Source: a virus
Taxonomy: Duplodnaviria; Caudoviricetes
Strand: one strand, 5' to 3'
IMG/VR virus record: IMGVR_UViG_3300027914_001438
Coordinates: 10,991 to 74,990 of that record
DNA length: 64,000 bases
Below the pieces are notes generated by a model. The model saw nothing but the letters and a program-made list of their open reading frames with translations. It ran no database searches and was not told the origin of the DNA. Positions 1 to 35,787 of the stretch are shown here, one piece after another. The position numbers and the translations under genes are program-made. Numbering within the stretch: position 1 is the first letter of the stretch; every line of letters starts with the position of its first letter.

Positions 1-2
1 AT

Positions 3-7159: not shown

Positions 7160-7161
7160 AG

Positions 7162-7190: not shown

Positions 7191-7221
7191 GTATTTGTGT
7201 TTTTATTAAGGAGATGCGATT

Positions 7222-7653: not shown

Positions 7654-7662
7654 GGAGACCAA

Positions 7663-10025: not shown

Positions 10026-10555
10026 AGAAGTGCGGAATATACGAAATATATAACGCCGCGAGCGGGAAGCGGTATATAGGGCAGAGCAATGATTTGCTGC
10101 ATCGTCGCTGGTTTCATTTTAACCGGCTGGCTCGTGGTATTCATCATAATAGTCACCTCCAGGCCGCGTATAACAAATATGGTGCCGACGTTTTCGAGTT
10201 TCGTGTGCTGGAAGAAGCCGAGGTGTCCGCGCTAACGGAGCGCGAACATTTTTGGATTTTAGAGTATAACACGATAGCTCCGGCCTTTGGGTATAACCTA
10301 TGCTTAGAGACACGCGAGCGGCGCGAGTTCTCCAGCGACACGTTAAAGAGGATGTCTGAGGCACACATAGGAATTAGGCACACTTCCGAGGCGCGCGCAA
10401 AAATGTCGGCTACGCGAAAAGGAAGAAAGCAGTCACCAGAACATATCGCGGCGCGGATATCTGCTAGAAAGAGCTATGCGGTATCCGGCGCTACGAGAAA
10501 GAAGATATCCGCGTCATTAAAACATCATTTTAAAACCAGAGGCGAAGCCTTATGA
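10022..10555 (+). CDS. Second GIY-YIG homing endonuclease (NUMOD3-like)
   Basis: CGIYEIYN...RYIGQS, HLQAAYNKYG..FEFRVLEE, FGYN; overlaps both neighbours by ATGA. Confidence 0.9.
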   Translation: MKKCGIYEIYNAASGKRYIGQSNDLLHRRWFHFNRLARGIHHNSHLQAAYNKYGADVFEFRVLEEAEVSALTEREHFWILEYNTIAPAFGYNLCLETRERREFSSDTLKRMSEAHIGIRHTSEARAKMSATRKGRKQSPEHIAARISARKSYAVSGATRKKISASLKHHFKTRGEAL

Positions 10556-11622: not shown

Positions 11623-11625
11623 CCA

Positions 11626-13341: not shown

Positions 13342-13346
13342 GCCCA

Positions 13347-13375
13347 TTTACTGTGGCTTTTTGGTGTGGTAATAT
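13347..13375 (+). promoter_or_regulatory. Sigma70-like promoter with extended -10
   Basis: TTTACT-17 bp-TAATAT with TGn, in an intergenic gap. Confidence 0.55.
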
Positions 13376-13400
13376 GAAATAGAGATTTAGGAGACGATTA

Positions 13401-14822: not shown

Positions 14823-14834
14823 GGAGCGTGGTGT

Positions 14835-15584
14835 ATGGTCGCGAACAATGTAAATAACAATCAGGCAACCCGACCGGTAGTGCCCGACCCGGCCTCTGAA
14901 CAAAACGTAATGCCCGGCTTTGGCGGAGCTTCGCAGTGGGAGACGACGGAGCGGTACGTTTTGAGCGACCCTGTCGCGTCGCGAACCCCGGGAAACGAGG
15001 CTATCCCATTTGACCAGGCCGGAATTCCGACAGGCCCGCTGGGAGACAGCGTTAGCGCATTGTCCAAGTCTATCGAACAATTGTCAGAGGCCAACGCGTC
15101 AATGCTGCGTGGAGAAATACCGGCGGATGTTTCCGCGTCCGTTCGGCGCGCCGCGAGCGAAACCTCTGTGGCGGGCGGGGTGTTCGGAAGCGCGGGGCGG
15201 GCGTTGTCTGCCCGGGACCTGGGCAAAACTTCGTATGAGATAAAAAAACAGGGCCTCGCGGTACAGACAGCGGTTGTGGAAGCCAGAAGTGGCCTGTCAG
15301 AAATATATGAAAAGATACGCGAGTATGACCTATCGCGGAACATGGCACTTACAGAGTTGTCGTATAAAGCGAGAGAACTCAACCTTAGCGCGATAGAGCA
15401 AGAGCGCCAGAGGATCGCTACAAACATACAGGCCAACGTAAATATTTTGAGGATGCTGGCGGATCTTAAGATAGCGCAGCAAGAAATCAGTGTCACGGCG
15501 GCGTCCCAGGAAATAGATCCGGCCAATATCATGGCCTCGTTCGACTCGATGATCGCAGCCTTGAATGACAAGTTAATTTCGTAA
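14835..15584 (+). CDS. Probable ejection protein (249 aa)
   Basis: Helical/coiled-coil, AAGGAG SD, ejection cluster. Confidence 0.5.
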   Translation: MVANNVNNNQATRPVVPDPASEQNVMPGFGGASQWETTERYVLSDPVASRTPGNEAIPFDQAGIPTGPLGDSVSALSKSIEQLSEANASMLRGEIPADVSASVRRAASETSVAGGVFGSAGRALSARDLGKTSYEIKKQGLAVQTAVVEARSGLSEIYEKIREYDLSRNMALTELSYKARELNLSAIEQERQRIATNIQANVNILRMLADLKIAQQEISVTAASQEIDPANIMASFDSMIAALNDKLIS

Positions 15585-15595
15585 GGAGACATAAT

Positions 15596-18196: not shown

Positions 18197-18198
18197 CC

Positions 18199-18227
18199 TT
18201 GCATCCAGGTGACCAAGGTGCTATTAT
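18199..18227 (+). promoter_or_regulatory. Sigma70-like promoter for the giant gene
   Basis: TTGCAT-17 bp-TATTAT with TGn, then an AGGAGG SD. Confidence 0.7.
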
Positions 18228-18252
18228 AACGGAAGCACTCAGGAGGCTTTAG

Positions 18253-21200
18253 ATGGCGATATTTGAAACGCGTGAAGAGTTCGTCGAAGACTACAAGACG
18301 AGGTACCCGCAGTTCGGAAACGTAGGCCCGCAGACCCTGTACTCAACGGCCTATCATTTGGACCCGGAAGGCACCGCCGCAAGCATATCCGGGGACTCTT
18401 CCCCGTTTTTCACGGAGTCTTCCCAGCTTCTGAACGGGCACCGCAGCGTCACGCCCGAGCTTGCCGACGCGTCAGACGAGGAGGTCGCGGTTGATTTCGC
18501 AGCCAAGGCACCAAGTATCGCAGCCGCTTGGGGACTTGGTGGCCCGCATACGGGCGCGGACACTGCCGGCATGGAGAAGAAGGGCGTGCCGCCGGAGATG
18601 ACAGAGGAAGAGAAACGCCAGGAGACTTTCTCCCGCATGTTCGGTGACTGGTACGGGCCGATGCCGTCCAAGCCGCTGGAAGAATACGAGTCAGGGAAAA
18701 AGCTGCTGGAGCTCGGCAAGAAGAACCTCGAGGGCCGGGCCGGATTTTTTGAGGGCTTCATGGGGACCAGGAAGTCGGACTTCATCCCGTTTGGCGAGAT
18801 CTTCGGGTCTACCGCTGACATCGTCGACATGATAAAAATCGGCAATAAGATGAAAGATGGCGACTTCTCCGACGTCTCGGAGGACGAAGTCGTAAAGTTC
18901 AACCTGCTGATGCAGCAGATGAAGCGGATGGACGAGGGCGGATGGAAGTCCCTTGCGGGTAATATTGTAAAGACTTCCATAATGATGGGCCTTGAGATCG
19001 GGACCACCCTGGGTCTCGGCACGCTGTTTGGAGTCGGCGGCAGGATCTTGTCGGCGTCCAGCAGCGCGAGTAAACTGGCGGCAGGGAAGACGTTAAAGAC
19101 CCTTGGCCAGATGCTCGCCGGAAAGAAGGCGGAGATATCCGTGCTTCAGAAAGTGATCAGCAAGGGTGAGAAGGGCCTGTTAAAGGCTACCGGCAAGAAG
19201 GTCGGGAAAGAGGCCGGGGAAGAAGTAGCGGAAGAGGCGGCAAAGAAGGTTGGAAAGAAGTTAGTTGGCAAGAAGGCCGGGGAAGAGACTCTGGAATCCA
19301 TAGCAGAGAAGAAGACCCAGTTAACAGCGCTGCAAGATTCCGCAGCCAAAATACAGGACGCGCTCGCCAAGGAGCGCACGAGGGCCGGCGTAATCTCGAC
19401 GTTCGATGAAGCCGTGCTCCGCGCCGCCGGAAGCCTGGACGACGCTGCGGTCGGCGTGAGACAGATGACCGGGGTTCGCGGATTCTTCGGAGGCCGCGCC
19501 ATGATGGGCCGGGCCTTTTTGGACGAACTCGGAAGCATGACTTCTGAAGGCCTGGCTGGAAAGTTCGGCGGCAAAGTCGCCGAGAATTTTTTGAGGGGCG
19601 CTGCTTCTTTCGGAGTGGCCGGAGGGGCAATCGCTACTGCACAGGTCGGATTGAAGACGGCCATAGAGCTGCTGGCTTCCATCGCCACAACCGGTGAGCC
19701 GGTGACCTCGTCGGGCGCGCGCATACAATTGCGTCGCATGTTTGAGGGCAAGACTGAGGAAGATCAGAAGTCGTTCGCGGCAGGCCTCGGGGACTTGTTC
19801 ATCGAGTATTTCTCAGAGTATTCAGGCGAGTATCTTTCTGCCATGCTGACCGCAGGGGTGGGCGGGCTTCCCGGGGCCAAGGGCGCATCCGCCGCGTGGA
19901 AGAAGGTCTCGAAAGAGGTCGGCAATAAGATATCGAGGGCCCTGGCCGCCGGGTCGAATGCTGCCAATATACCTGTGGACGCCGTAAAAAACAAGGCGGC
20001 CTCAAAGATGGTGAGCGTGTTCAAGACCATGTTCGCCGTAGAGCGCGGAGGGGCTGTGGGCCCCTCGGAGTTTATGGCCAACCTTCGCGCGATGGGCTAC
20101 AGCAGTATATTTGGTGAGTGGCTAGAAGAGCGCTTTGGCGGATTCCTGCGCGGGCTTACCGGGCTGGAGGGCGATGAGCACAAGTCCTACATGCGCAACA
20201 TAGTTGAGTCCAGCTTCCCCGCGAACAGCGATCAGGCTATAGCCGAGCTCGTAGCCTTCTCCATTCCCGGTACGGCAAACCTTGCCATGCGCCACCTTGG
20301 AAAGATCATGACACTTGAGGATGACAGCGCTTACAAAGAGAGCGCGAAGCTGTACAACAGGAGCATAGGCAAACTGGCTGGCAGAATGCAGGATACTCTG
20401 ATACGCAACAAAGCGGCGATACGTGACGAGGTGCTGCAGGATAGAAGAAAGGCTATAGCGGAGCGGGAAGTAGAGATAATTCCTGAGACTGAAAAGGAGC
20501 GTACCGCCAGAGAAGCGGCCATAAAACAGAAGGACGAGCAGATAGCGGAAATTGAGGCGAAGCGCGCGGAGCTGGAGAAGAACAAGCCGGCAGATGGAGC
20601 CAGCGAAGAGGATAAGAAAGCGCATGAAGCCTCTGTTAAAAAGATGGGCGCGGCTATAGACAGCCTGAAGAAACAGCGTGACGATATCCGGGCGCCCGGA
20701 GAGGCTAAGGAAGAAGCTCCGGAAGCGGCACCGGAAGCGGCACCGGAAGCCGAGAAAGAACGCAAGCCCTCCCGGCTGAAAAAGCTCGGCGATAAGGCTG
20801 CTCCAAGATACTACAAGTTGTCCCGAGAGATAGACGGAGCTGTTGATTCTGTTATAGAGAAACTGTCGATGGAGTCCCGCAGTGATACAGTTGCCCCCGC
20901 GGAGGTGATAGCGGAAGAGCTTAAACTCGAATTGGCGCGGCGCGCAGAGAAGAAGGGCCTCGGGGATATATCTGATGTGCTGGCTCGCATAACCCCGGCG
21001 TCTGTATCACACTTAACTGCAAATTTCACAGAAGCTGCTACCTTAAGGAACGAATCCAATATGATCCTGCGCCGCAGAGACGCGATGGACATGGTTTCCG
21101 GAACTGGCATACGGTCATTCTTCTTTGATCTGGCGAACACGTTCTTCGAAAAGACTCTCGGCGTTCATTACTACACGCAGGGGGCAGCCGAGGCCGCTGG

Positions 21201-24200
21201 AATCGGGGCAGGGGGCTTCGGAAAGACATACACTGAGCTTGCGTACCGAGCTGGGTTTGTGCACTCACTCAATCGTAATTACACTTTATGGAAAAAGGAC
21301 GTGAACCAGAGAGTAGCGCGCGCCCGCAGTATCCTAAAACGGGAACTTACGCCCGACGAAGAATCGCGGGTGTATAACAAGGCCCTCGAAACGGCCGCGC
21401 AGCGGTATCAGGCCGACGCGCTCGCTTACGCGAAAGTGGCAAACTTCTCAAACGAGCTGTTGCCATACGAAAAGGACATTATCGCCAAGGCGTTGCGGCA
21501 TGAATACGACCTCGGGCTCCGCGAGGAAGGGTCCGCGTCAACGAAGGATGTGCTGGATGAATTCTTAAGCATGTTCAATGGGCCGAGTAACGAATGGAAA
21601 AATCTGCACAGGGCCAAGTCAGGATCTCACATGGAACAGCTGCTCCACGACAACCCCAAGCAGGCGGGGCTGGCAATTCAGGTGCTCGCGCGCCTTCGCG
21701 GAATACTCCCGCCCTTCCAGGAAGTGTCTCACGAACTGAACTGGCTCGGCTCTTTCGGAGAACACATACTGAACATACTTACTCCACCGGGCGAGGGTGC
21801 AACAGAAGAGGAGATAAAGGCGCACTCCGACAGGTTCAATGCGCTTATAGATGAGCTTGCAGATGAGGAAGGCAAGCCGCCGAAGCCTTACGGTTTTGCA
21901 TCGAAAGAAGAAGCGCTCGCATTTTTAATTGGCGCAACCCGCGTATTCCGCCTGCCTGAACTGATGTCCGGGGCAAAGATAACCGCCCCCGATTTCACGC
22001 GCGACAATGCAGCTCTTGACTTCTTCAAGGACTATTTCATTAACATGCTTGCCTTACTGGACTCCCGGTACATACCGGAGACTCTGAAGGATGTGGTCGA
22101 CAATACGTCGAAGGACAAGTTCATCGGCCTGTACAACGGGCTGGTCGCCACTGGCCTTGCTGTCGGCGGGGTTACCAACAGAATGCGCGAAGAGGGACGC
22201 CCGGACCCAAACAGTTTTGCAGACGCTATATACATGCTGATGGTTGGCGACGCTTTAAAGCGCGACTGGGTTCCGACTCCGGCGTTTATGATTCTTGCAT
22301 ACGCTGCGGGTGTCGACGTCAGCAGCGACGCGGCACTGGCTTCCTGGACGCAGGCCGCAAGCCGCGCCATGGCTGTCGCGGCCGCCACGCTGCAGCCGAG
22401 GCAGTATCCGAATGTAAACGATGTGCTTAAGGTATATCGCGACAAGTTTGGATTCATGCCCAGGGAGACGGGTGACGACTACGCTGACGCTATCGTTATA
22501 AAAGTGAACCGGGCGGACGGCGCTGCTGCGGATAAGTGGGACTCTGCAGTGGTGGTCGCTTTGAGCGAGTACAGTAAATATCTTGAAGAGGACAGCAATC
22601 CGGAATACGAGCACACCATAACGCAGGCTGAACTGGCCGACAACCGGGTGAAAATACCGCCGCCGGCCCCTACATTTATAATAGCTCCGGGCAACATATC
22701 TTACCGCATGACCCGGCGCACGCTGCAACTGGTATACCCGTCTGTGTACAAGCAGATAGCCTCTGATCCGTATAATCACATACTGCACTACGCCAATGCG
22801 GACCGGTCAGAAAGTCCGGAAGACATCTTCACTTTCGCCGAGGGGTCATACAACAATACGTACGGTGGCGGAATAATATATGTCACTCCGCACGGCATGA
22901 ACAGCCTCGGACTAGTGGAAGACACTCTCGAGATACTGCATAAGCAGGGGTCTGAAGAGGCTGACGGAATGGATATACCCGCGTTCTTCTACGACAAAAA
23001 GAATAAAACCGGATACGTGGCGAGCGTGCTGTCCGCGCTCAAAGAAGCCGATATGGACGAGACGACTGCCGAGGGGCGGGCGAGAAAGCGTTTGCTCGAC
23101 TACCTTATAGCCGCCACAAGTTACATGGATTCCAAGAACGGAGCGGAACAGGCGCTCGGTCGTGAGATGCTGATGGAGATGCTCGTGAAGACAGTGGCGT
23201 TGTTCACCCTGGACTTCCAGTACGCGCGATCAATGAACGGGCTGCCGGCCGGCGCCGCACTGGTTGAAGAGGCCTTTGTAGCATTCAAGACAGTCGGGAA
23301 AATGGAGATAGACAAGCCCGCATCGGGTGAGAAAAGTGACGTGCAGCGCGACCTGTTGAACAGGGCTTTGCAGTTCTATTCCGCACGCGGCCTCACAGCA
23401 GATTTAATAGATGACCTCAGGTATGAGCGCGACGCGATTTTCGTAGGGCACACACCAACGGCCGGCACCTCTTCCGAGCTGCGTGGAGTACGGTCGCGTC
23501 TGCCAGGCCCTAAAGGTAAGAAGATCCGAAAGCGCGCCGCCAATATGAGATTCCAGGAAGGCGATGAGGTAATAGTCTTGTCCGATTCCGGGAAGGTCGA
23601 GGGCGTTGCTGAACTTACTGGAAAATCTTATGTGTCTGGAACTGGCAGGCTGATTGCCGGCGCTAGGAAAACTATGGGCCAGCCGAAGGTATTCGCGAAG
23701 ACTCGGGTTATCGCGTTTGGCGGAGAATCAGTGCATAAGGGAGAGGGCGTCGGCGTGCCTGAGACCAGAGAGGTAACCACCCTCCCAAAAGTCGGCAAAG
23801 TTAAAGAGGCGTGGGATAAGGTAAAAGAAGCCCACGCTGACCGAACGAAATATATGAATGCCACCGGGCTAAACAAGATGATCCGTGGCAATATTTTCAG
23901 CAGGTTCCCGGATGTATTGTCATTCTTAAAAGTAAAAGAAAACACACTCGCGCTTGCCGACAAGGGCGTGACTCCCGAAGAGGCAGCCAAGAAACTTGAA
24001 GAACTGGACGCCGCGCACCTCGAGGCATGGGCCGCCTTTGAAGCCGCTGTAAAAGAGGCTAATCTTCCGTACTCATCCGTGTTCGAATCCGTGGCAGGCA
24101 GGCATACAGTTCTTGACGGTATCACTTCCCGCAACGTCTATATCGAGCGCGAGAGTATAAACGACGCGCCGAAGAAGAAGAAGGTGGTCGGCAAGGCTTT

Positions 24201-27200
24201 GAACTGGCTGGCAACTGCGATAGTAAGCAAGATGCGCGCCGGTACCAAGGCACGAAGGGACTCAGGCACGTTGTCCTCAGCGTCGCTGGGGAACATAGAC
24301 AGGGGCATGGAAGACGGCAGTCGCGGAGGCGAGGAGCTCGCCACGATGCTTACCGGAACGACGCCCGTGAAGAACCCCATGATAGAAGCCGGAAGAAAGG
24401 CGATACGCAAGTACGTCCCCGACGACGCTATAAGCGGGATAGAAATATTCCTGCGCACCGACAACAAAGACGACATAATGCTTATCACTTTCGCAGATGG
24501 GATTATAACGTGGGAAGAGAACGGCGAGAAGCACGCTATCGTACTTGAGATTAAGACTAAGAGCGCGAAGTCCAACCCGCTGCTCAACGAAGATTTTATG
24601 GGGGTGCAGGAAGGCGACACACTGTCGGAGAACGAGGCCGGGCTGCTGCAGACGTATGGTGAAATACGCGCGCTCATGGACCTCGGGTGGAAAGAGGAAA
24701 ACATTATCGGCCTGCGCGTGCTGGCCGGCCGCGAGAAGACATCCTCCGGCGCTATTAACCTAAAGCTGTTTGAGCACCGCGCTCCATCGCCCGCCACCAC
24801 AATGATAGAAGATCCTTCCGACGTGAGGGACCTCAGTGACTTGGGCACTATAGTCACCGGAAGCATAAAGACCCGGGAAGCCGGCACGCTGGAGGAAGCG
24901 TACAACTTGTTCCTTAAACGTCTCGGCAAAGAGGGGGTTCCACGTGAGCCCGCGTCCGAACCCGATGAGGCTGCCCCGGAGGTCCCGTCCAACAACGAGG
25001 TGCCGACGTCGTCGAAAGGCGAGGAAGAAAAGACCTCCGGCGAAGAGGTCCCGGGCACGAAGAAGGCCAATAAGATAAAGAGGGGCCAGCGCGGAACGCG
25101 GTCCATAGCCAAAGTCCCCGAGGCCCCAAGAGCCCGGGCGAAGAAGGCCGCTCCAAAACTCAGCCGCCACAGCGGAGACGACAGGCGCGGCACCCGGTCG
25201 ATCACCAGCTATGTCACGTCATACTTCAAAATGGTGGACTCTCTTGGAGCTTCCGGAACAATCTCCCGGAGGGCGGTGTCCGGAATAGGCGCGGCAGTGG
25301 CCCGCGCGGCCATAGCAGGCGATGAAGACAACGGGGCATTCGATAGCAATGAGCTGTCCCGGTACCTCGGCGCGCTGGAAGTAGCCAGGAACGTATCAAG
25401 AACCAAAGAAACAGTCGGCCTGCATTCCGCGGTGGCTGTCCTAAGCAGTTATCTGCGCAGGAACAAGAATGGGCCGATGGCCCAGGATTCCCGCGAGTCC
25501 CTGGCGGATGTGGCGCTGTGGATATATTCTGTGCTCAGCGACGAGGCATACAGGCCCCTGCGCACACAGATGCAGCTGCCAGGCGATGGATCACACGCCG
25601 ATGCGTTCTCTATAGCGCTGCTCGCCTCGAGGGTGTACATGGACACCGTGGCGCTGTCCTATTTTATAGAGGACGTCATGGCCCTCGGCGAGGAGACGCT
25701 TGGTGAGAAGAGACTTGGTGACTTGCGCGCCATGCTCGAGTGGGTGAAGAGCACCCCGACGCTCGACATGCGCAAAGCCCTTGAAGACGGGCTAACTCCG
25801 GCGACCAGAGAGATGCTGGAAAACGGGACTGACCTTGAGCTGCACGAAAAATCTGTGATGGCCAAGGACTCCATAGAGCGCATGGCGGAAGTGCTGGCAG
25901 ACCAGCCGGAGCATGACGGCTACCTTACTCCGATGCTCGGCACAGTGCCGAAGTCCGCCCTCAAAAGCTCTGAGGCGGTGCAGCGCGCGCGGCAATCTGT
26001 GGAGTACTACTCCCGCATAACGGCCAGTGTGCTCAAGGCGTGGGCGCGGGATTCGAAGGCCGGAACGGAGGACGCCATCAGCAAGCTGGCGCTGGATGAG
26101 AACCTTGGCGAGCTTGATCTCAGGGTATTTAAAGTGGCCGCAGTGTCCGGCATGCCGTACAGCAAGTTCAGCGAAGTGATAGGGCGCGCGTCGTCCCTCA
26201 TGGAGTTTCGCCTGCTGCAGTACCAGGATGAGACCAAATTCCGGTCGTCCGCTCTGGTTGAGCACCGCGGCAGCCTGAATAAATCCGGAAGCATCGCCGC
26301 CCTCGCACTGCGTGGACTGTACTCCTTCATGAACAAGTCGTCGCTGTTTTCAAATAACACCTCTGCCCCCGGCGAGCTCGGGCGCATGCAGAATAAGTTC
26401 AAGCCGCTCCGGGCGTTCGTGTACGAGAACTATACAGAAGAATCTGCCGTGGACGTGCGCAGGCTGGCGTCCGTTTTGCTGGAGAAGATCAAGGCCGTAG
26501 GTCTGGACATGGACCCGGACCTGAGAGAAGAACTTATGAGTGTTGTTGACACCGCTACGGCGATAGTGTCTCGCCTTATCAAGGCCTCCCGCGCCGTGGA
26601 CATAGATCCGGATACTGTACGGTACTTTGCCGAACTGACAGACAAGGAGTACGTTCGCAGCCTGGACCAGGCCGCGTTCAATGAGCTTGCCAAAGACGCC
26701 GGCCTTCTGGTATCGGCATGGGCGGACGCCCTGTCGGAATTCACGTCTACTCTCGAGCGCACAGGCGACGCAACCCTGGCCAAGGCGAAGGCATACGAGG
26801 CCTTTGCCGGTTTTAAAGTAAAGTCCGAGGCAGACGCGTTCTCGCAGGGGATAGTGGCGAAGTTCCTGAGTTCGCTCGCGGGATTCCGGTCGTCCAACGC
26901 CACCGTGGATCAGTCCACTTTCACCACTACACAATTTGACCTCGTAGTCCTTTCCGCTATACGCGCGCTTGGTCCCGAGTTTGAGAAGGCTACCGCCGAC
27001 CAGCTCGTGTCTGTTCAGCTCCGCACCGGAAGAGATGTGCTGTTCCACAAGCTCAGCCCAAAACACCAGCGCCGCGTGCTAGAGGATATATCGGCTATCA
27101 ACAGGGACGACGGAATGGTGTACGTCCCGGTTATGCGCGCCGACAGAAAGGGGGCCTATCTGCTGAGCCTTCCCGAAGCGGCCCTTAGAGACAAAGCGGA

Positions 27201-30200
27201 AAAGATTCTTGGGGTCCTGAACGGAAAGAGCAACCCCACCGAACAGGATATAGAGGCGCTCAAAGTGTACTCCATCGACAATCGTGAGCGCCTGGTTGCC
27301 GCCGGGAACTACCTGATGGCGGAAGCCGCGTTCGGCACTGAGGCAGTACCCCAGCTGTTCCGGAATATCGAGTTCCTAAAACGACTGCGCCAGTACAATA
27401 CCGGATACAAAAAGGTTCCATCCATCCGCATGTCCAGCACCTCAGCTGCAGGGTCGCGCGGGCTGGGTGTGGACAACGGGGAACTTCCGATCTTCGCCAT
27501 TGACGAGATGACGATAACAACGAATGACGGAACGGTGTACACGAAGGACGCTATGGACGGACAGGGCGTGCTGTTTGACCGCGTGTATGACGTAGTTGCT
27601 CAGTCACTTGGATACAGCAGCATACCGGGATCGCTTAAACTCACCAACCTTGGAACCAGGTCCGGCGATGCGTACAAAGACACGAACGTGCTTGTTATGG
27701 CGAAGCCCAACTTTGTGCGTGCAGGAACGTACATGGACAGCAACGCGGTGCTGGAAAAAATAAAGTCCACATCCGGGCCGTCCGGAATTGGTCTCCTGAT
27801 GTCCGCCATAGAGCGGGAGCCGCGGCTGACCGGGGTAGTCGGCATACTTACCGGAGCCGCTAAAGTATTTTCGAAAGAGAACGCGCCGAGTGAGACCATG
27901 ACCATGGAACTTATTCACGACGGCAAAGTCGTCGGCGCTGTCACTATAAAGGGCAAACACGCTACTGCTTTCGCTGAGACATTCGCGCAGACTGCCCAGC
28001 TGGACGGAGCGAATCAGATGACAGAAGACCGGGCAAACAAGGGCATGCTTGCCGGCTCCAGCATATCGTGGGCGCGGGCTGACGCCGCGGCCGGGGCGAT
28101 GCTCGGCTACGCGCTGGCTGCGTACGGACTTATGTCATCAAAGTATGGGGAGAGCTCGCGTGAAGCGCAGAACATACTGAAGACATTTGACACGGCGAAG
28201 AGGTTCAACTTTGGCGATCAGGCCTACTTGGTTGAGAACGCCGGGATGAACCCGTTCCATCCGGCACTGGATGACGTGTATAAGAACGTGAGTATGCGCA
28301 GCTTCGGGGACGGCATTGTGGCGGAAGTGCCAAGGCACGACTCCACCGTCGTATCTGATCCCGGGAATTTTTCCGGCGTGCACGATGGTTCCGGCTCAAC
28401 ACCCGCCACGTTCCGCGCAAATATAGCGGGAGCGCAGGGCGCCGTACGAATACGGCTGCCCGGCGTGAAGAGCGCAGCGTCCGCGCGGGCACGAATTGCC
28501 GATATGCTGGAGACAGCGGTACGTATTTCAGAACTGTCGGGCGACTTGGAGGGCGACGACCTTAAGGACTTCCTGAGCATAAGCAAGTACTTGTTCGAGG
28601 AGACCGGAGAGCCCCTGTCCTTCACGAAGTCGCTTCGCGGGCTGCTCACTTATGACCAGACAATAGATCCCGCATCCCTGTATATAGAGCAGGACAGCAA
28701 GACGGGCGACCTTCTGGTGTTCCCGACACACGGGACTATTAACCGCATCCCGACGCATTCCATCGTTACTATAAACAGCGCCGCCTATCTTGGCCCGGCC
28801 ACGTACGACTACGACAGCGTTACTGTGCGCGATACTGCGACCGGAAAACTCGTGCAGTCGTACCGCGCGGTGGCTCACCGCGACAACATATCTATCATAG
28901 CCATAGAGACCGCGGAACGGTGGGGTTCAGACGTAGACGCCGATGCGCTGCACTTCATGCAGACTATAATACCGGGACGCAGTACGGAGTACCGCGGATC
29001 GATGAACGCTATAATGCAGAAGGTGGACGCCGGCACTGCGGACGAGACAGACATGAAGTGGCTTGCCTATCACATGGCGAATGAACTTGAGCGCGCCGCC
29101 GCCGAGGTGGACCCGGATACCATAGCCTCTGCGGGGCTTATCAACCCGGGCGCCTACGACGAGGTCCTTATCAAACTCACCGGTGATCTTGGAAGCATCC
29201 TTGGCACAGATGAGCGCACGGTGGCGGAAGCCGCGAAAGCCGGAATGACTCCGGAGTTCGCGAGCCTCCCGAAGGTACTGTCCACGCTGGACAGCATAGC
29301 GGCCAAATCAAGAGAGGCCCGCAGCGGAGCCATGAATGCCCAGGACGTGCTGACGTTCCTTACAAACGTGCCCGGCCTCCGGCTATTCGGCGATACGTCC
29401 GAGGAGCCGCTGTTCACCTCTAAGCGTGGAGGGACTCTGCGCCTTGAGAACAGGGATATGTCCACTCCGGAGCGTGTGGCAAAGATTATGGTGTCGGTGA
29501 ACGCTGTGAACGTTATTATTGATATGCTGAAACTGGCTCCCCGGTACGCCCTGCGCTTCGACATGTCCGCCCCGTTCGTTGCCGCTCTGCTCGGGAGCCG
29601 CGTGTCCATGACCCCTAGAACGGAGCTAGATTCGATAAACAAATTCGGAGCCGACTATGTGAGGAACGACCCTACGTCTGCATTAAACTTCGTGCAGACG
29701 TGGGTAGATTTCTGGAACGAAGATCCGGGCGCGCTGCTGTACAACCGCGCAATGGCTGTGATAGAGGAAGATCGGGATCGTGCGAACGTACCCACCCAGT
29801 GGTACGGAAATTTTGGAATACTTGCCGCGCTTATTAGCCAGTTCATGGAGGAAGAGAAGGAAGCCACCGGGCAGTATCCAAATATGACGAAAGGGTCTGA
29901 GGACAGCGATAGATTCAACGACATGATACACGCCATTAAGGAATTGTTCCTGGCCGGGGAAGACATCATGCGGCTCGGCGGGTTCCTGAAGTTCGCGTAC
30001 GACCCGGCGGGGGCGAACGTGTACAAGATGTTGTCCTACCTAAGCCTCATCGAAAGGATAGAATCGCCGAAGCTGCGCAAGGATAAAGACGGCAATGAGA
30101 TTCCGCCGAGAGTTGACTTCCGGGGTATAACAGGGACGTCTCTGTACAAGCTGAATAAAAAGGCTGTAGAGCTCGCGCTGAAAGAGCGGGAGAAGTTCGG

Positions 30201-33200
30201 GGTTCTCTCCAATCCGAACGTGCGCTCGGCGCTGTACACCATGATAGAAGAGCGGCTAATCGGCCCCGCGGACACAGAACGCGCTATTACCAGGCTTGAA
30301 GCCGCCGCCAACTCTTCTGCCGCGTTCTCTCTGTTGCCGAAAGATCTGCGGTCCGCTATAGGCGAACTGCTGGACTCTCAGATAACCGGCACGTCAGAAC
30401 AAAAAGTGTCCAGTATGATTGTGGGTCTCGACGGTCTGATTGACGCACAGCGGGAAGAAACGCTGGAAGAGTCGGAGCTTATGCCGGACGAGGAAGAAGA
30501 GAAAGAACCGGCCGCTGAAAGAGAAGTAACCCTTAAGTCCATGTCAGAAAATGATGCAAGGAATTTTGCGTCGCTGGTACATTACATAGCGGCGGACTCC
30601 GTGTCTTCCGGTATGGCGGACCTGGCCGTACGAATATACGTTGCAGCTTTGGCTAATCCAGAGTTTAAAGAAGAGCTCGCGAAAATGTCGGGCCTTCTCG
30701 ATGTGTCCAACCTGCCGGTAAACCTCAGAGCGCTTCCGACCGTTGATGCAGCTAGAGTAAGGCAGGCCGGGATAAAGACGCCCGGGGTGCGGGCGTCTCC
30801 GCTGTCACAGATTGCTGCCAACGAAGCCATCGACGCCATGTACACAGTGATGATGTCGCTTAATGAAGCGGACCGCACCATAACTATAGACTCGTCCAAA
30901 GTGATGGAGACCCTGGGGTTTATAGACGAGGAAGACAACACCACTATAGCAAAAGTCTCTGTCCCGATAGAATCTAAAAAAGACCTGATGAATATAATGC
31001 AGTACGCCTTCGTGTCCACGCGCGGCAGGCACTCACGTGCATTCGGGGACACCCTGTCGGTTATGCCGGCAACCTATCATATGCGCCTGGCCGCCGCCAA
31101 GCTGGACGAGATAAAAAGGTGGGGGTCGGCAGAAGCCAAGTTCCTAGTGACCTCTGCCTGGCTGTCCGAGTTTACAAGGCGTGGCAAAGAAAACAACCGC
31201 ATGTCTGAACGCAACCAGATATGGGGAGTGCTCGGTAAATACTCGACACGCGGTATCCCGGCCACTTCGTTGCTTGGTACCTTTGGAACTGGGGCTTCTT
31301 TCCTGGAGGCCGCGGTGACCAGAGTGCCGTCCGACGCTACGGTTACCGGCATAAAAGTGAAAATGGACCGGGCTCGCATAGCCCAGGACCCCTCCGCGGG
31401 CACGCGTTCTGTTGCGTCCTTCCTGAAAGGGGCCGGAATATCCGCGCTCCCGCGAGCCACCATGGACGAGCTGAACAGGATATTCTCTCTCGTCGAGGCG
31501 GACAATTACGACGAGGCCGCGAACTTGCTGGAGTCGTTGTCGGATGCTATAGACAGCAGACGCGCGAAAGACGACAGATACGAACGGCTGTATAAACTTT
31601 TGCAGCAGGGCATTAAGGATCACTTCCGAACCCTCGAGAAGAACCGGGAGTTCGCAGGAGAACTGCGGTCAGAAGAGATAAAGAAGGAAGTGGAGCGGGG
31701 GCACTACGACGGTACGATACCGCCTGAACAGGTGGAACGTGACGCCCCGTATTACGTATCGCATCTCAGAGCTCAAGGGCACTTCGAACGCACGCTTCCG
31801 TCGGACATTGTTGAGGTGTCCGGCAATGCGGTGGCCCTCGCTGCCGCTGCCGCGGCTCAGCTCAGGAGCATCGGGAAACAGGTTGAAGCGGATACTGTGC
31901 TCGTGCCCGAAGTGGCGACCTCTGTGTTCAAAGGCTATTCCGGGCGGAGCAAAGAAGCCTCGGACAGCCTAATCAAGCTGGCTACCCGGCTGGGCCTCGA
32001 GCAGGATACCGTCAAGCGGCTCGGCAATATTCCTTACGGCGTAGCGGAAGCCCGCATACGAATAGAGGACGACGGGCGGAAGCCCGGCACCCGCTCTATA
32101 ACCAGCTACATGAATTTGATAGATGATGCTATCCGCAACGCTGAGAAAATAGGCGGACCGAAATATTTCCACGACGTTATGCAGGTGCTTGAAAATTTCC
32201 AGCACGCCACCACACTCATCATAGGATCCGGTCTTGACCTTCCGAATACTGTGTTTGGCCAGGGGCTGGACAATGACGAGGTGTTCAACTGGTTCACAGA
32301 CAAGTTCGATAGACGCCACAAAAAGGGCGGCATCATTAAGAACCGCAGGCCATTTAAGATGGAATCCCGCCACGTTAATTACGGCACGATAGCTAATGCG
32401 ATAGTGCTCACGATAGCTGAAGGCAGCAAAAAGGTGCGGGTAAAAATGAAAGATGGTACCACACAGGATATGGTGCTGGTTGCTTTCGGGTCACACATGA
32501 AGGTCCACTCCAACCCGGAGGACAATTATGCGCTCGATCCGATAGTGTACATATACCGGGACGGCCTTACCGCCATTGGAAAGGACGCCGCAGACCGCGC
32601 GATAAAACGGTTCGTTGACAACGAGATAAACACGAAGTCTGACCCGGCCCAGCGCGCGCACCTGAGAGAGCAGTATATACGGATTTTCGAGTCGGAAGAC
32701 CCCGCAGGGTTCGCCAAGGCAAACGCAGAGGGCGGTGAACGGCAGGTGTTCCGCGCGGCCATATACCATGAGTTGTTTGAGAATGGGATCGAAGGAACTC
32801 CGCAAGTAGACCAGGTGGATAAAGAGACCGGCGTGGTTAAGTCTCCATTCCTGTCGCTCGACTACGCGATAGACTTGGTAAAGAACAGCGGCCTGTTCGA
32901 GCTTCTTAAAGAGCATGGCAGGACCGATGAGGACATGGACTTCTACCGCCTGGCAAAACAGATCAACGACGTGTCAGACCGCATATTCAACGCCACCTCT
33001 GACGTGTTCACTATGTTCAATCCTGGTTCCGGCCGGCTGGTTGGCTACACTAAAGGCTACATCCGGCACATCTACGGCGGCACTGGATTTGAAACGGCGG
33101 AGCGCTCCCGCATGCGCAGGGTAATAAACCAGATGGCCTTGAAGAAAGGCAGCCGCACGGGCGAGGGCTCCGGAGTTAGCCCGAACATTTTCAAGACCAC

Positions 33201-35787
33201 GTCCAGAGACGAGCCGGAAGAGCAGAAAGCAATGCCGGAACAGGAGACGCTGTTCGTGCGCATAGCGGAAGAGCTCGACAAAGAACTGGAACGCGCCGAT
33301 GAGAAGCAAGCGAATATGGTGGCCCGCACAGAGGACGAACGCAGCACGTGGAGCAAGTACTCATACAACTACATGATCCACAAGATGCTCACCCGTATAG
33401 AGCAGCTGAGAGGCCTGTACGCTGAGGCGCACAACGAGCCATACACGATGGACTATGCTCGCGCGTCTCTTATTGCGGGGCTTAAAAACTACTTCCGCGA
33501 ATATTCCGACAACGAGTGGACTCCGCTGGCTGGCAAGCGCATGTACTCCTCGTACGCCGATGCCATGATCAGGTCCGGCGGTGAAAAGAACCCGCTAATA
33601 ACCAACCCATCCAGGCTCACAGCGAAGAGTCTAACCGAACTCGTGGACTATGTGCTGCGGTCCACCCTTGCGGACATGGCCACCATGATAGTTGACTCTA
33701 CCGGCAACCCGCTCATGATACCGGTACGCAAAGTAGGCGAAAAAGAAGCGAGCCCCGTGGAGAGGCACAAACCCGTGCACTCCGCCGTCAGCGACGCCGC
33801 TCTGCACAGGCTTATAACGTACATGTCGTCGAAGGAAAATATAAAGATTGACCGGGACATGCCGCTCGGGGCTCAGCTGGAAATTATAGTGCGCGGTAAA
33901 AAAAAGACCTATGTTGATATGGAGCACAATCTCGCCAGTATAGAAGATCTCAAGGTGCTTGCGGACAAGGGTACCCCGGAGACCAAGGTTATAAAGAAAC
34001 TGTTTGGTGAACCATACCGTATAAAGGTTGAGCTTGGAGGGGGGTACGAGTACGACCTGCTGGCTCTGGCCGGAGAAACAAACGCTGTGCTGAAACAGAT
34101 GGCGCTGGGGTGGAGTGTGTTCTTTGGTACTGCCGGAATAGAATCCGTAATCGCCGGCACAAGTCCAAACCCGCTTAAGAGCATGGCGTTCCCGTTCCTC
34201 CCGTGGCAGTTGGCCCAGTACGGCGAGATGATAGAGTTCGGACGGGACGTGAGAAACAACTCCGTCCGCGCCGCCGAAGTTATGGCAGAGCTTACCCTGG
34301 CCGGAATGCGCCTGTCGGAGGCAGCGTCTTCCGACAATACGAATTCCGCCATAGACAGATTCATTGACAGGACGGCCTTGCGGATCAGCGAGAGGCTCGG
34401 CCGCCCGGACTTCGAACGCGGGGCGCGTGTCGGGCTGAGATGGCTCGCCGGCCGCCAGCTGTCGAAACTTCTTATGCGGGACTTCTTCGGAGGGCTCAAG
34501 ACCTGGGCGGCTATCAACCTAGTGAACGAGCTGTCGGTGCAGATGCCTACACACTCCAGATTCTCGGTAATGCGTGCGGCCGCCGATCCAGTGAATGACG
34601 CGTTCGGTGGACAGAACTGGTCTAAGTATTTGTGGGCAACGCCCCGGGTGCTGCAGATGCTGTCGCTGCTGCTGTTCGCACCCAACTGGACGCTGTCTGC
34701 GTTTAATGTCGCCGGCATGGCCGTCTTCACACAGGCCATGCTAGGTAATCGCATATCCCCGGTGCAGGCAAGGTTCGTCACAAGAAACTGGGTGTCCATG
34801 TACCTCATGGCCCTTCAGGTAATACCAAACATGCTGCAGGCGGCGATATACGGAGTGGCCGCTGCACTGCCCGGAGGCGCGGACGATGACGACGAAGATG
34901 ATAAGAAGTATGACCGCGTGCTGGCGTGGAACAACGAGTTCGGGAAGGGTGGTCTGTTCCCGTCTATCGACGTGACGCCGATAGCAAGGAAGCTTTGGAA
35001 TTACAAGGGCGAGCCCACTGGCAATCGTCGGGTGTACATCCGCTTTGGAAAGCAGTCATATGAAGTCATCAACGGGTGGCTCACCGACCCGGTGGCTACC
35101 GTTGGGCGCAAGTCCTCCATGCTGGTGAAGCTGGTGTGGGAACAGGCCTTCGGACACTCGCCCGGATCGCCAGACTTTCTGCTTCCGTTCAAGAGTGTCG
35201 GGCCGCTCTACGGTATATTCGGAAGTGATGCCGGGTTCCGCGGATCCCGTCTCGGGGTGCTGGCGTCGCATACAATCCCGATGTCGTTGTCCACCATGCT
35301 CACCACGCCGGACGCGGGGCTGCTGCCCCTGTTGGCTCCTGCCTCCAAAGGTATGAGCCAGACGCGGGCGACTCAGGGCATGATAAAGGTGCTGTCAGAA
35401 GCCGCAGAATACCGGCCGACGGGCCGCACCCGCCACCATCCTGAGCAATACGCTAACATGTACGCGCTGGCCGCTGAATACATGGACGCGGCAACGAGGA
35501 ACGGTTACGATGCGGATCAGGTGCTGTCTGCCGCGTACGGCGCGGTAGCTCCGAAGTACTATCGCAAGTTCTACGAGGCCTATTTGAACGGCGATATGGA
35601 TGCCGCCAACGAAATGGCCAAGAAGGTTATCCGTATAGGGGCCACAGTGCGCGGGCTGCAGCAGTCCGTAGTCGGAAGGCATCGCAAAACGGGCCGCGGT
35701 GAATTGACCGAGGAAGAGAAGGCGTCCCTTCAGGAGGCATTCGAGGGAGCCATGCCCGATATTATTAAGGAATTGAGGAACAAGTAA
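18253..35787 (+). CDS. Giant (5844 aa) virion protein containing a putative two-barrel RNA polymerase and a PD-(D/E)xK nuclease domain
   Basis: Motifs in order: DGQG (aa ~3102), AKPN, GAAK, NRIP (aa 3497), GSDVDAD (aa 3558-3564). Nuclease ADGII...LEIKT...Q.Y (aa ~2080-2140). Hydrophobic N- and C-terminal segments. Confidence 0.75.
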   Translation: MAIFETREEFVEDYKTRYPQFGNVGPQTLYSTAYHLDPEGTAASISGDSSPFFTESSQLLNGHRSVTPELADASDEEVAVDFAAKAPSIAAAWGLGGPHTGADTAGMEKKGVPPEMTEEEKRQETFSRMFGDWYGPMPSKPLEEYESGKKLLELGKKNLEGRAGFFEGFMGTRKSDFIPFGEIFGSTADIVDMIKIGNKMKDGDFSDVSEDEVVKFNLLMQQMKRMDEGGWKSLAGNIVKTSIMMGLEIGTTLGLGTLFGVGGRILSASSSASKLAAGKTLKTLGQMLAGKKAEISVLQKVISKGEKGLLKATGKKVGKEAGEEVAEEAAKKVGKKLVGKKAGEETLESIAEKKTQLTALQDSAAKIQDALAKERTRAGVISTFDEAVLRAAGSLDDAAVGVRQMTGVRGFFGGRAMMGRAFLDELGSMTSEGLAGKFGGKVAENFLRGAASFGVAGGAIATAQVGLKTAIELLASIATTGEPVTSSGARIQLRRMFEGKTEEDQKSFAAGLGDLFIEYFSEYSGEYLSAMLTAGVGGLPGAKGASAAWKKVSKEVGNKISRALAAGSNAANIPVDAVKNKAASKMVSVFKTMFAVERGGAVGPSEFMANLRAMGYSSIFGEWLEERFGGFLRGLTGLEGDEHKSYMRNIVESSFPANSDQAIAELVAFSIPGTANLAMRHLGKIMTLEDDSAYKESAKLYNRSIGKLAGRMQDTLIRNKAAIRDEVLQDRRKAIAEREVEIIPETEKERTAREAAIKQKDEQIAEIEAKRAELEKNKPADGASEEDKKAHEASVKKMGAAIDSLKKQRDDIRAPGEAKEEAPEAAPEAAPEAEKERKPSRLKKLGDKAAPRYYKLSREIDGAVDSVIEKLSMESRSDTVAPAEVIAEELKLELARRAEKKGLGDISDVLARITPASVSHLTANFTEAATLRNESNMILRRRDAMDMVSGTGIRSFFFDLANTFFEKTLGVHYYTQGAAEAAGIGAGGFGKTYTELAYRAGFVHSLNRNYTLWKKDVNQRVARARSILKRELTPDEESRVYNKALETAAQRYQADALAYAKVANFSNELLPYEKDIIAKALRHEYDLGLREEGSASTKDVLDEFLSMFNGPSNEWKNLHRAKSGSHMEQLLHDNPKQAGLAIQVLARLRGILPPFQEVSHELNWLGSFGEHILNILTPPGEGATEEEIKAHSDRFNALIDELADEEGKPPKPYGFASKEEALAFLIGATRVFRLPELMSGAKITAPDFTRDNAALDFFKDYFINMLALLDSRYIPETLKDVVDNTSKDKFIGLYNGLVATGLAVGGVTNRMREEGRPDPNSFADAIYMLMVGDALKRDWVPTPAFMILAYAAGVDVSSDAALASWTQAASRAMAVAAATLQPRQYPNVNDVLKVYRDKFGFMPRETGDDYADAIVIKVNRADGAAADKWDSAVVVALSEYSKYLEEDSNPEYEHTITQAELADNRVKIPPPAPTFIIAPGNISYRMTRRTLQLVYPSVYKQIASDPYNHILHYANADRSESPEDIFTFAEGSYNNTYGGGIIYVTPHGMNSLGLVEDTLEILHKQGSEEADGMDIPAFFYDKKNKTGYVASVLSALKEADMDETTAEGRARKRLLDYLIAATSYMDSKNGAEQALGREMLMEMLVKTVALFTLDFQYARSMNGLPAGAALVEEAFVAFKTVGKMEIDKPASGEKSDVQRDLLNRALQFYSARGLTADLIDDLRYERDAIFVGHTPTAGTSSELRGVRSRLPGPKGKKIRKRAANMRFQEGDEVIVLSDSGKVEGVAELTGKSYVSGTGRLIAGARKTMGQPKVFAKTRVIAFGGESVHKGEGVGVPETREVTTLPKVGKVKEAWDKVKEAHADRTKYMNATGLNKMIRGNIFSRFPDVLSFLKVKENTLALADKGVTPEEAAKKLEELDAAHLEAWAAFEAAVKEANLPYSSVFESVAGRHTVLDGITSRNVYIERESINDAPKKKKVVGKALNWLATAIVSKMRAGTKARRDSGTLSSASLGNIDRGMEDGSRGGEELATMLTGTTPVKNPMIEAGRKAIRKYVPDDAISGIEIFLRTDNKDDIMLITFADGIITWEENGEKHAIVLEIKTKSAKSNPLLNEDFMGVQEGDTLSENEAGLLQTYGEIRALMDLGWKEENIIGLRVLAGREKTSSGAINLKLFEHRAPSPATTMIEDPSDVRDLSDLGTIVTGSIKTREAGTLEEAYNLFLKRLGKEGVPREPASEPDEAAPEVPSNNEVPTSSKGEEEKTSGEEVPGTKKANKIKRGQRGTRSIAKVPEAPRARAKKAAPKLSRHSGDDRRGTRSITSYVTSYFKMVDSLGASGTISRRAVSGIGAAVARAAIAGDEDNGAFDSNELSRYLGALEVARNVSRTKETVGLHSAVAVLSSYLRRNKNGPMAQDSRESLADVALWIYSVLSDEAYRPLRTQMQLPGDGSHADAFSIALLASRVYMDTVALSYFIEDVMALGEETLGEKRLGDLRAMLEWVKSTPTLDMRKALEDGLTPATREMLENGTDLELHEKSVMAKDSIERMAEVLADQPEHDGYLTPMLGTVPKSALKSSEAVQRARQSVEYYSRITASVLKAWARDSKAGTEDAISKLALDENLGELDLRVFKVAAVSGMPYSKFSEVIGRASSLMEFRLLQYQDETKFRSSALVEHRGSLNKSGSIAALALRGLYSFMNKSSLFSNNTSAPGELGRMQNKFKPLRAFVYENYTEESAVDVRRLASVLLEKIKAVGLDMDPDLREELMSVVDTATAIVSRLIKASRAVDIDPDTVRYFAELTDKEYVRSLDQAAFNELAKDAGLLVSAWADALSEFTSTLERTGDATLAKAKAYEAFAGFKVKSEADAFSQGIVAKFLSSLAGFRSSNATVDQSTFTTTQFDLVVLSAIRALGPEFEKATADQLVSVQLRTGRDVLFHKLSPKHQRRVLEDISAINRDDGMVYVPVMRADRKGAYLLSLPEAALRDKAEKILGVLNGKSNPTEQDIEALKVYSIDNRERLVAAGNYLMAEAAFGTEAVPQLFRNIEFLKRLRQYNTGYKKVPSIRMSSTSAAGSRGLGVDNGELPIFAIDEMTITTNDGTVYTKDAMDGQGVLFDRVYDVVAQSLGYSSIPGSLKLTNLGTRSGDAYKDTNVLVMAKPNFVRAGTYMDSNAVLEKIKSTSGPSGIGLLMSAIEREPRLTGVVGILTGAAKVFSKENAPSETMTMELIHDGKVVGAVTIKGKHATAFAETFAQTAQLDGANQMTEDRANKGMLAGSSISWARADAAAGAMLGYALAAYGLMSSKYGESSREAQNILKTFDTAKRFNFGDQAYLVENAGMNPFHPALDDVYKNVSMRSFGDGIVAEVPRHDSTVVSDPGNFSGVHDGSGSTPATFRANIAGAQGAVRIRLPGVKSAASARARIADMLETAVRISELSGDLEGDDLKDFLSISKYLFEETGEPLSFTKSLRGLLTYDQTIDPASLYIEQDSKTGDLLVFPTHGTINRIPTHSIVTINSAAYLGPATYDYDSVTVRDTATGKLVQSYRAVAHRDNISIIAIETAERWGSDVDADALHFMQTIIPGRSTEYRGSMNAIMQKVDAGTADETDMKWLAYHMANELERAAAEVDPDTIASAGLINPGAYDEVLIKLTGDLGSILGTDERTVAEAAKAGMTPEFASLPKVLSTLDSIAAKSREARSGAMNAQDVLTFLTNVPGLRLFGDTSEEPLFTSKRGGTLRLENRDMSTPERVAKIMVSVNAVNVIIDMLKLAPRYALRFDMSAPFVAALLGSRVSMTPRTELDSINKFGADYVRNDPTSALNFVQTWVDFWNEDPGALLYNRAMAVIEEDRDRANVPTQWYGNFGILAALISQFMEEEKEATGQYPNMTKGSEDSDRFNDMIHAIKELFLAGEDIMRLGGFLKFAYDPAGANVYKMLSYLSLIERIESPKLRKDKDGNEIPPRVDFRGITGTSLYKLNKKAVELALKEREKFGVLSNPNVRSALYTMIEERLIGPADTERAITRLEAAANSSAAFSLLPKDLRSAIGELLDSQITGTSEQKVSSMIVGLDGLIDAQREETLEESELMPDEEEEKEPAAEREVTLKSMSENDARNFASLVHYIAADSVSSGMADLAVRIYVAALANPEFKEELAKMSGLLDVSNLPVNLRALPTVDAARVRQAGIKTPGVRASPLSQIAANEAIDAMYTVMMSLNEADRTITIDSSKVMETLGFIDEEDNTTIAKVSVPIESKKDLMNIMQYAFVSTRGRHSRAFGDTLSVMPATYHMRLAAAKLDEIKRWGSAEAKFLVTSAWLSEFTRRGKENNRMSERNQIWGVLGKYSTRGIPATSLLGTFGTGASFLEAAVTRVPSDATVTGIKVKMDRARIAQDPSAGTRSVASFLKGAGISALPRATMDELNRIFSLVEADNYDEAANLLESLSDAIDSRRAKDDRYERLYKLLQQGIKDHFRTLEKNREFAGELRSEEIKKEVERGHYDGTIPPEQVERDAPYYVSHLRAQGHFERTLPSDIVEVSGNAVALAAAAAAQLRSIGKQVEADTVLVPEVATSVFKGYSGRSKEASDSLIKLATRLGLEQDTVKRLGNIPYGVAEARIRIEDDGRKPGTRSITSYMNLIDDAIRNAEKIGGPKYFHDVMQVLENFQHATTLIIGSGLDLPNTVFGQGLDNDEVFNWFTDKFDRRHKKGGIIKNRRPFKMESRHVNYGTIANAIVLTIAEGSKKVRVKMKDGTTQDMVLVAFGSHMKVHSNPEDNYALDPIVYIYRDGLTAIGKDAADRAIKRFVDNEINTKSDPAQRAHLREQYIRIFESEDPAGFAKANAEGGERQVFRAAIYHELFENGIEGTPQVDQVDKETGVVKSPFLSLDYAIDLVKNSGLFELLKEHGRTDEDMDFYRLAKQINDVSDRIFNATSDVFTMFNPGSGRLVGYTKGYIRHIYGGTGFETAERSRMRRVINQMALKKGSRTGEGSGVSPNIFKTTSRDEPEEQKAMPEQETLFVRIAEELDKELERADEKQANMVARTEDERSTWSKYSYNYMIHKMLTRIEQLRGLYAEAHNEPYTMDYARASLIAGLKNYFREYSDNEWTPLAGKRMYSSYADAMIRSGGEKNPLITNPSRLTAKSLTELVDYVLRSTLADMATMIVDSTGNPLMIPVRKVGEKEASPVERHKPVHSAVSDAALHRLITYMSSKENIKIDRDMPLGAQLEIIVRGKKKTYVDMEHNLASIEDLKVLADKGTPETKVIKKLFGEPYRIKVELGGGYEYDLLALAGETNAVLKQMALGWSVFFGTAGIESVIAGTSPNPLKSMAFPFLPWQLAQYGEMIEFGRDVRNNSVRAAEVMAELTLAGMRLSEAASSDNTNSAIDRFIDRTALRISERLGRPDFERGARVGLRWLAGRQLSKLLMRDFFGGLKTWAAINLVNELSVQMPTHSRFSVMRAAADPVNDAFGGQNWSKYLWATPRVLQMLSLLLFAPNWTLSAFNVAGMAVFTQAMLGNRISPVQARFVTRNWVSMYLMALQVIPNMLQAAIYGVAAALPGGADDDDEDDKKYDRVLAWNNEFGKGGLFPSIDVTPIARKLWNYKGEPTGNRRVYIRFGKQSYEVINGWLTDPVATVGRKSSMLVKLVWEQAFGHSPGSPDFLLPFKSVGPLYGIFGSDAGFRGSRLGVLASHTIPMSLSTMLTTPDAGLLPLLAPASKGMSQTRATQGMIKVLSEAAEYRPTGRTRHHPEQYANMYALAAEYMDAATRNGYDADQVLSAAYGAVAPKYYRKFYEAYLNGDMDAANEMAKKVIRIGATVRGLQQSVVGRHRKTGRGELTEEEKASLQEAFEGAMPDIIKELRNK

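Follow-up and report, generated by a model that had tools for sequence, protein, structure and literature searches.

A candidate two-barrel RNA polymerase within a giant, cysteine-free protein of an activated-sludge phage

A giant gene and its polymerase-like motifs

The stretch of DNA analyzed here (the window, 64,000 nucleotides) covers positions 10991-74990 of the 74,990-bp IMG/VR virus record IMGVR_UViG_3300027914_001438, which stems from an uncultured phage and whose completeness is estimated at 70%, and it contains a single open reading frame (ORF) of 5,844 aa on the plus strand (18253..35787). This ORF encodes a giant putative cargo or ejection protein without a single cysteine, and a Shine-Dalgarno sequence, AGGAGG (18241..18246, plus strand), lies 6 nt before its ATG. 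A sequence-only reading of the window had proposed that a two-barrel RNA polymerase (RNAP) is buried in this protein, and our analysis supports that proposal, if incompletely, as every prediction it made at the level of sequence held. We consider it likely that the region of aa ~3090-3920, at 53-67% of the length of the protein, is a single-chain two-barrel DNA-dependent RNAP of the type seen in gp66 of phi14:2 (a crAss-like phage) and in QDE-1, which would be packed in the particle within the giant cargo protein and would transcribe early genes after ejection.

The ORF and the five motifs on which the earlier proposal was built are all present on the translation (27541-28950) where they had been placed: D3102 of AMDGQG at 27556, K3151 of MAKPN at 27703, K3204 of TGAAKV at 27862, INRIP with N3497 at 28741, which reads N-R-I-P-T, and DVDAD, which is D3560-D3564 at 28930-28944. 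They outline two candidate double-psi beta-barrels (DPBB), both on the plus strand. The lysine-bearing, DPBB-B-like candidate (aa ~3090-3215, 27520..27897) comprises D3102-G, K3151-P3152 and G3201-A-x-K3204, and the catalytic, DPBB-A-like candidate (aa ~3480-3575, 28690..28977) extends from N-R3498-I-P3500-T through the DxDxD loop. Within the latter, G3558-S-D3560-V-D3562-A-D3564 (28924..28944, plus strand) is the predicted Mg-binding catalytic loop: D3560, D3562 and D3564 would hold the catalytic Mg2+, R3498-x-P3500 would be part of the same barrel as the three aspartates, and K3151 and K3204 from the second, upstream barrel would contact the nucleoside triphosphate and the nucleic acid. Further downstream, the conserved elements N3753...D3757..K3760 and W3817...D3824-P3825 (29509..29727, plus strand) are invariant in five lineages and lie at the distance expected of a bridge helix and a trigger loop, of which they may be the equivalents.

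A DxDxD motif by itself is not significant in this protein, because five copies are present where 1.3 are expected from the aspartate content. What exceeds chance is the conservation of the copy at 3560, not the occurrence of the motif.

Conservation of the site among giant relatives

An exhaustive HMMER search with aa 2900-4000 against 1.8 billion representatives returned two relatives only, P0003 (6,190 aa, 34% identity, E=1.5e-116) and P0004 (5,979 aa, 30% identity, E=4.4e-85), with which the giant protein is colinear over its full length. All five motifs are invariant in both, and among the five DxDxD copies only that at 3560 is retained in both. In the three-way comparison, aa 5200-5844 stand out as best conserved, with three-way identity of up to 63% in the C-terminal module, and the N-terminus and aa 3400-3900 come next. 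In addition, a 98% identical copy of the giant gene is found on an activated-sludge contig (L003), and a full gene of the P0003 type is present on a JGI contig (L004). The RNAP region yielded no relatives in word-indexed homologue searches, the GTDB genomes contained no relative of the giant protein, and a tblastn search with it against 50,697 phage genomes gave no match. IMG/VR peptide and DNA pattern scans yielded one candidate, L002, which proved to be a chance methyltransferase match, and no true relative was found that way.

As no other part of the protein is as well conserved as the C-terminus, aa 5150-5844 (33700..35784, plus strand) were taken as a search hook. This search retrieved 15 giant proteins of 3,577-7,679 aa (E 1e-233 to 5e-9), 13 of them in addition to P0003 and P0004. 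A three-sequence hidden Markov model (HMM) of the RNAP-like region links four of these (P0010-P0013) at 1e-20 to 1e-34, and a seven-sequence HMM links P0015 at 1e-6 and P0014 at 1e-5. In 14 of the 16 giants, namely the protein of the window and 13 of its 15 relatives, there is exactly one site in which R-x-P is followed after 40-60 residues by G-x-D-x-D-x-D; it is preceded by a hydrophobic strand and located at 35-62% of the length of the protein. The R-x-P predicted upstream of the DxDxD loop is thus an invariant partner of the loop in these 14 giants. Alignments that combined the window fragment with many whole giants (A2, A4 and A7) scattered the fragment and were left out.

In a five-lineage alignment with 20-34% identity, K3151-P3152, G3201-A3202-x-K3204, R3498, P3500, G3558, D3560, D3562, D3564, N3753, D3757, K3760, W3817 and D3824-P3825 are invariant, which bears out the two upstream lysines of the sequence-only reading; the DGQ motif is less well kept, with only [DN]-G remaining in the wider family. 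The DVDAD loop had been described as an unusual variant. It is indeed present, but it is not a lone oddity, as it belongs to a spectrum in which the fourth position is A, G or I: the giant family itself contains DVDAD, DNDAD, DNDGD, DFDAD, DFDGD, DHDAD, DYDGD and DTDGD. P0015 carries YRIPG ... GEDFDGD, and the loop of P0017 is DYDGD. As the intermediate matches are significant, the DVDAD of the window is tied to the canonical DFDGD of cellular RNAPs and to the DYDGD of QDE-1.

Comparison with known two-barrel polymerases

The closest known system is gp66 of phi14:2, a virion RNA polymerase of 2,180 aa (Drobysheva et al., preprint 10.1101/2020.03.07.982082). Like gp66 and its orthologues, the giant protein has its candidate barrels in a single chain, with the lysine-bearing one upstream of the catalytic one, it shares with them [YN]-R-[IV]-P-T followed by E-x5-G-S-D-x-D-x-D-x-[LM], and its fourth loop residue is not glycine (Ile in gp66, Ala here). 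In both cases, the known or predicted polymerase region lies within or beside thousands of residues of unknown cargo. The lysine-to-lysine spacing is near-identical, with 53 residues between the first and the second lysine in gp66 and 53 in the giant protein, and the second lysine precedes the arginine of R-x-P by 257 residues in gp66 and by 294 in the giant protein. The distance from this arginine to the first aspartate is 60 residues, as opposed to 39 in every crAss sequence, which indicates an insertion of ~21 aa between R-x-P and DxDxD in the giant family.

For a profile comparison, nine crAss-like RNAP regions were assembled from deposited phage genomes. The top hhalign match between a 12-sequence profile of the giant family and this nine-sequence crAss alignment covers 56 columns with a score of 32.4 (P=0.017) and spans the YRIPT strand to GSDFDID-K-[LM]-Y, that is, the catalytic barrel. 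The second match, in which tGA.KV is paired with VKVG of gp66, is colinear with the first and not significant alone (P=0.64). Controls were clean: reversed profiles scored 12-14, the N- and C-terminal domains of the family 16.6-19.5, and 40 column shuffles 13.5 at most. The match to the catalytic barrel is the sole profile-profile signal behind the likeness to crAss-like RNAPs that the earlier reading had claimed, and it goes in the claimed direction. Against E. coli beta-prime alone, the best hhalign alignment falls on residues 403-472 (NRAPT...NADFDGD), a match at the correct site that lacks significance (P=0.35).

An ungapped block scan of the whole 5,844-aa profile ranked the YRIPT and DFDID blocks of the crAss alignment first among ~5,830 positions, at 3494 (YRIPT) and 3544 (DFDID), 50 aa apart. 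A chain of the three first-barrel blocks of gp66 (DAQ, QPLK and VKVG), crAss-spaced upstream of this anchor, picks D3092, K3151 and K3204, and its DPBB-B chain score was matched by 0/300 shuffles, a p-value that, like that of the block scan, is indicative only. In a language-model search of the ESM Atlas, limited to named clusters, the top three, mostly viral clusters, were all PF05183, the family of QDE-1-type RNA-dependent RNA polymerases (RdRPs), with scores of 0.87-0.84, below the reliability line of the tool at 0.9. The predicted arrangement of two DPBB domains in one chain is also that of QDE-1 and the eukaryotic RdRPs, to which the DYDGD of P0017 adds a further likeness; the biological context, by contrast, is wholly unlike.

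Several results weigh against reading the region as an RNAP. The hhalign P-value of 0.017 is modest, and with the three close sequences only, the catalytic motif of gp66 was still the best alignment but with P=0.32; the motifs were already known when the block and chain tests were devised, and the language-model scores stay under the threshold just given. Neither Pfam and PHROGs searches of the whole giant protein in three pieces nor phmmer and profile searches of PDB sequences gave any match, the PF05183, PF00623 and PF00562 models had none in the whole genome at E<=10, and HMMER with the crAss RNAP alignment gave no match above decoys in the giants, so that similarity to gp66 is confined to the ~56 columns of the profile-profile match. 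The bridge-helix and trigger-loop blocks of gp66 score worse than random in the giant family, and the N- and C-terminal modules showed no similarity to gp67 or gp65 of phi14:2. AlphaFold2 models of aa 2900-4000 (3-row alignment) and aa 3040-3920 (8-row alignment) had a mean predicted local distance difference test (pLDDT) of 36.6 and 41.6, respectively, the latter with 23-45 over both putative barrels. Foldseek (pdb) and wide VIA searches with the second model gave generic helical matches only, which are uninformative because of the low model confidence and were given no weight. Lastly, with regard to the predicted virion location, no portal, capsid or terminase was recognized when the large late ORFs were compared with Pfam and PHROGs at standard thresholds.

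These results leave room for the possibility that the G-x-D-x-D-x-D loop serves another metal-dependent activity, for instance that of a nuclease or phosphoesterase, or of a domain that modifies cell walls or nucleotides, and that the RNAP likeness is a coincidence of short motifs. Such an activity would agree with the silence of the database models, with the lack of a confident fold in the two AlphaFold2 models, with the undetectable bridge-helix and trigger-loop blocks and with the fact that acidic DxDxD-like clusters are common, the protein having its five. We nevertheless regard it as unlikely, as a coincidence would have to account for a colinear set made up of R-x-P, a hairpin insertion, E-x5-G-S-D-x-D-x-D-x-[LM] and, at crAss-like spacing, two lysines upstream, for exact DFDGD and DYDGD loops in relatives with YRIP upstream, and for an independent language-model search that lands on PF05183 among ~24,700 Pfam families.

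Polymerases within giant proteins are known from other phages. Annotations of crAss-like and Flavobacterium phages (cr55_1, cr10_1, cr118_1 and Fpv2) include fused genes of 4,400-4,950 aa that carry an RNAP, and transcription proteins of giant size have been named as a hallmark of the crAss-like group (PMC7886860). The Thermus phage P23-45 encodes gp96, a tape-measure-fused virion RNAP of 5,002 aa (10.1101/2022.12.01.518664). In this phage, a very large protein of the virion conceals a two-barrel RNAP and brings it in together with the DNA, as is predicted for the protein of the window; in gp96, however, the RNAP is at the N-terminus of the tape-measure protein of a long-tailed phage, whereas the RNAP-like region of the window lies in the interior of a protein without tape-measure features.

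A giant polymerase with the predicted life cycle is also found in coliphage N4, whose virion RNAP gp50 has ~3,500 aa, is packed in the virion, ejected and transcribes early genes. It differs in being a T7-like single-subunit enzyme. The 75-kb record was not matched by the PF00940 model (T7/N4-type RNAP) at E<=10, a negative with little power, as the control genomes were unmatched too, and neither a T7/N4-type nor any other RNAP was found in this record.

Genome context, delivery and implications

The giant gene is the last of a ~35-kb co-directional block of large ORFs that converges on an opposite-strand replication module, which includes a family A DNA polymerase, a DUF5906 primase-helicase, an SNF2-type helicase, a PD-(D/E)XK nuclease and a metallophosphatase. 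The same arrangement is seen in phi14:2, in which g067-g066-g065 (1,797 + 2,180 + 1,421 aa) encode three adjacent virion proteins at the end of the structural block, facing the replication genes; the late-looking block here takes the place of the structural block of gp66 and its orthologues. We infer packaging and ejection of the giant protein from this gene order and by analogy only. In this model, the protein would be made late and packed into the capsid, and it would be ejected with the DNA in an unfolded or extended state, with which the complete lack of cysteine is consistent. The ejected protein would then transcribe the early genes without the host polymerase. The C-terminal ~700 aa would act as a packaging and ejection module, to which other phages would attach different enzymatic cargo.

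Given that the virion location of the giant protein is predicted, it has to be considered that the protein is a functional two-barrel RNAP that is not packaged, but acts inside the cell as a polymerase of late or middle expression, fused to other replication or host-takeover modules. Non-virion RNAPs of the two-barrel type also exist in P23-45 and in jumbo phages (10.1101/2022.12.01.518664), and the late-looking block has no identifiable structural gene, both of which would suit an intracellular enzyme. A polymerase that starts the infection and is encoded at the end of a late-looking block, on the other hand, makes sense only if it is borne by the particle, and the giant size, the absence of cysteine, the gp67-gp66-gp65-like position and a C-terminal module common to other giant multi-enzyme proteins all point to delivery, so that we hold the intracellular alternative to be quite unlikely. 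That the module is a relic derived from an RNAP, no longer polymerizing and retained as a structural or DNA-binding part of the cargo protein, is very unlikely in our view: the alanine at the fourth loop position, where glycine is nearly universal in cellular RNAPs (10.1101/2020.03.07.982082), and the missing trigger-loop and bridge-helix signal would fit a relic, but gp66 is active with Ile at this position while each of its aspartates is essential (10.1101/2020.03.07.982082), A and G alternate there within the giant family, and the invariance of the three aspartates, R-x-P and both lysines among lineages at only ~20% identity implies selection on catalysis.

The giant protein is thus, in the reading that we prefer, probably a crAss-type virion RNAP in a new lineage without a sequence link to Crassvirales. 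The sequence-only reading had called the phage not obviously crAss-like, and we likewise saw no such link in PHROGs, Pfam or tblastn searches: none of the crAss-like signature structural genes (large terminase subunit, portal and major capsid protein) was recognized among the large late ORFs, and tblastn with the candidate terminase and capsid genes against the 50,697 deposited phage genomes gave no match. The other late proteins resemble neither crAss-like ones nor those of any of these genomes, and the phage differs from crAss-like phages also in its origin from activated sludge, its 55% GC and its strong use of Shine-Dalgarno sequences. The virion module (window 1-18200 together with L014) is essentially unrecognizable by sequence, and the exceptions with family matches in the late block are a single sub-threshold DUF4214 match and two GIY-YIG/NUMOD3 homing-endonuclease genes (L014:3956-4726, which is 3956-4726 of the genome, and window 5887-6525). 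In the replication/early region, we also observed a gene for an 848-aa protein with a HATPase_c_3 (GHKL ATPase) domain (56413-58959, minus strand).

The C-terminal module is the best-conserved part of the giant protein and common to the 15 other giants. Two of these, P0018 and P0021, share it in proteins without the DxDxD site; P0018 has SNF2 helicase and GGDEF domains instead, and P0021 has Strawberry-notch helicase and DnaJ domains. The C-terminal ~700 aa therefore resemble a shared delivery module whose cargo can be exchanged. Modularity is also evident at the other end, because the N-terminal ~1,700-aa module is missing from the giant gene on the P0011 contig (L015; genes 943-1821 and 10001-20782). 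Three opposite-strand genes lie upstream of this giant gene, and a 292-aa gene of the contig is 47% identical to the window ORF 14835-15584, so that local synteny is partly kept. Cysteine is absent also from P0010-P0014 and P0021, the counts are 1-4 in P0003, P0004, P0016, P0017 and P0018 and 9 in P0015, and the most distant giants, P0019, P0020 and P0022, have 32-49. Hydropathy analysis of P0002 revealed no clear transmembrane helix, and a membrane-pore role for the C-terminus is therefore unsupported.

GTRS[IV] repeats occur at aa 2281, 2313, 3134, 4383 and 4612 of the giant protein (window 25093-32109). They are poorly kept in P0003 and P0004, in which the sites 4383 and 4612 retain a [ST]-[RNH]-S-[MLV] core and 2281 and 2313 are not retained. 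Because of this weak conservation, the idea of a conserved polyprotein cleavage code is unsupported; cleavage near 4383 or 4612 may still occur.

Taken together, the distribution of cargo domains leads us to a tentative proposal, which we put forward as possible and no further than that: the giants may form an undescribed superfamily of almost cysteine-free phage proteins of 3.6-7.7 thousand aa that share a ~700-aa C-terminal module for packaging and ejection and carry interchangeable enzymatic cargo in mid-protein, with a divergent two-barrel RNAP (DVDAD to DFDGD) in most and SNF2 or Strawberry-notch helicases, GGDEF or DnaJ domains in others. If this is true, the injection of a transcription starter would be one use of a general modular device for injecting an enzyme, well beyond Crassvirales.

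The kind of system is already known from phi14:2 gp66, the fused crAss giants and P23-45 gp96. New, as judged from sequence, are the lineage, whose other genes show no sequence link to Crassvirales, a predicted catalytic loop with alanine at position 4 in a family that spans A and G, and the 21-aa insertion in the candidate catalytic barrel; the shared C-terminal module with what looks like swappable cargo would be a further novelty. Virion-delivered two-barrel RNAPs, which are known from crAss-like phages and P23-45, bear on the origin of the eukaryotic RNAi polymerases and on the escape of phages from dependence on host transcription. The giant protein and its 15 relatives suggest that such an RNAP-delivery strategy exists in phages of engineered and environmental microbiomes in which neither structural nor replication genes provide a tie to Crassvirales. 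The graded loop variants, with A, G or I at position 4, offer material for testing what the catalytic loop tolerates, and the C-terminal module, which some members combine with a predicted RNAP and others with helicases, may provide a handle for finding further injected enzymes.

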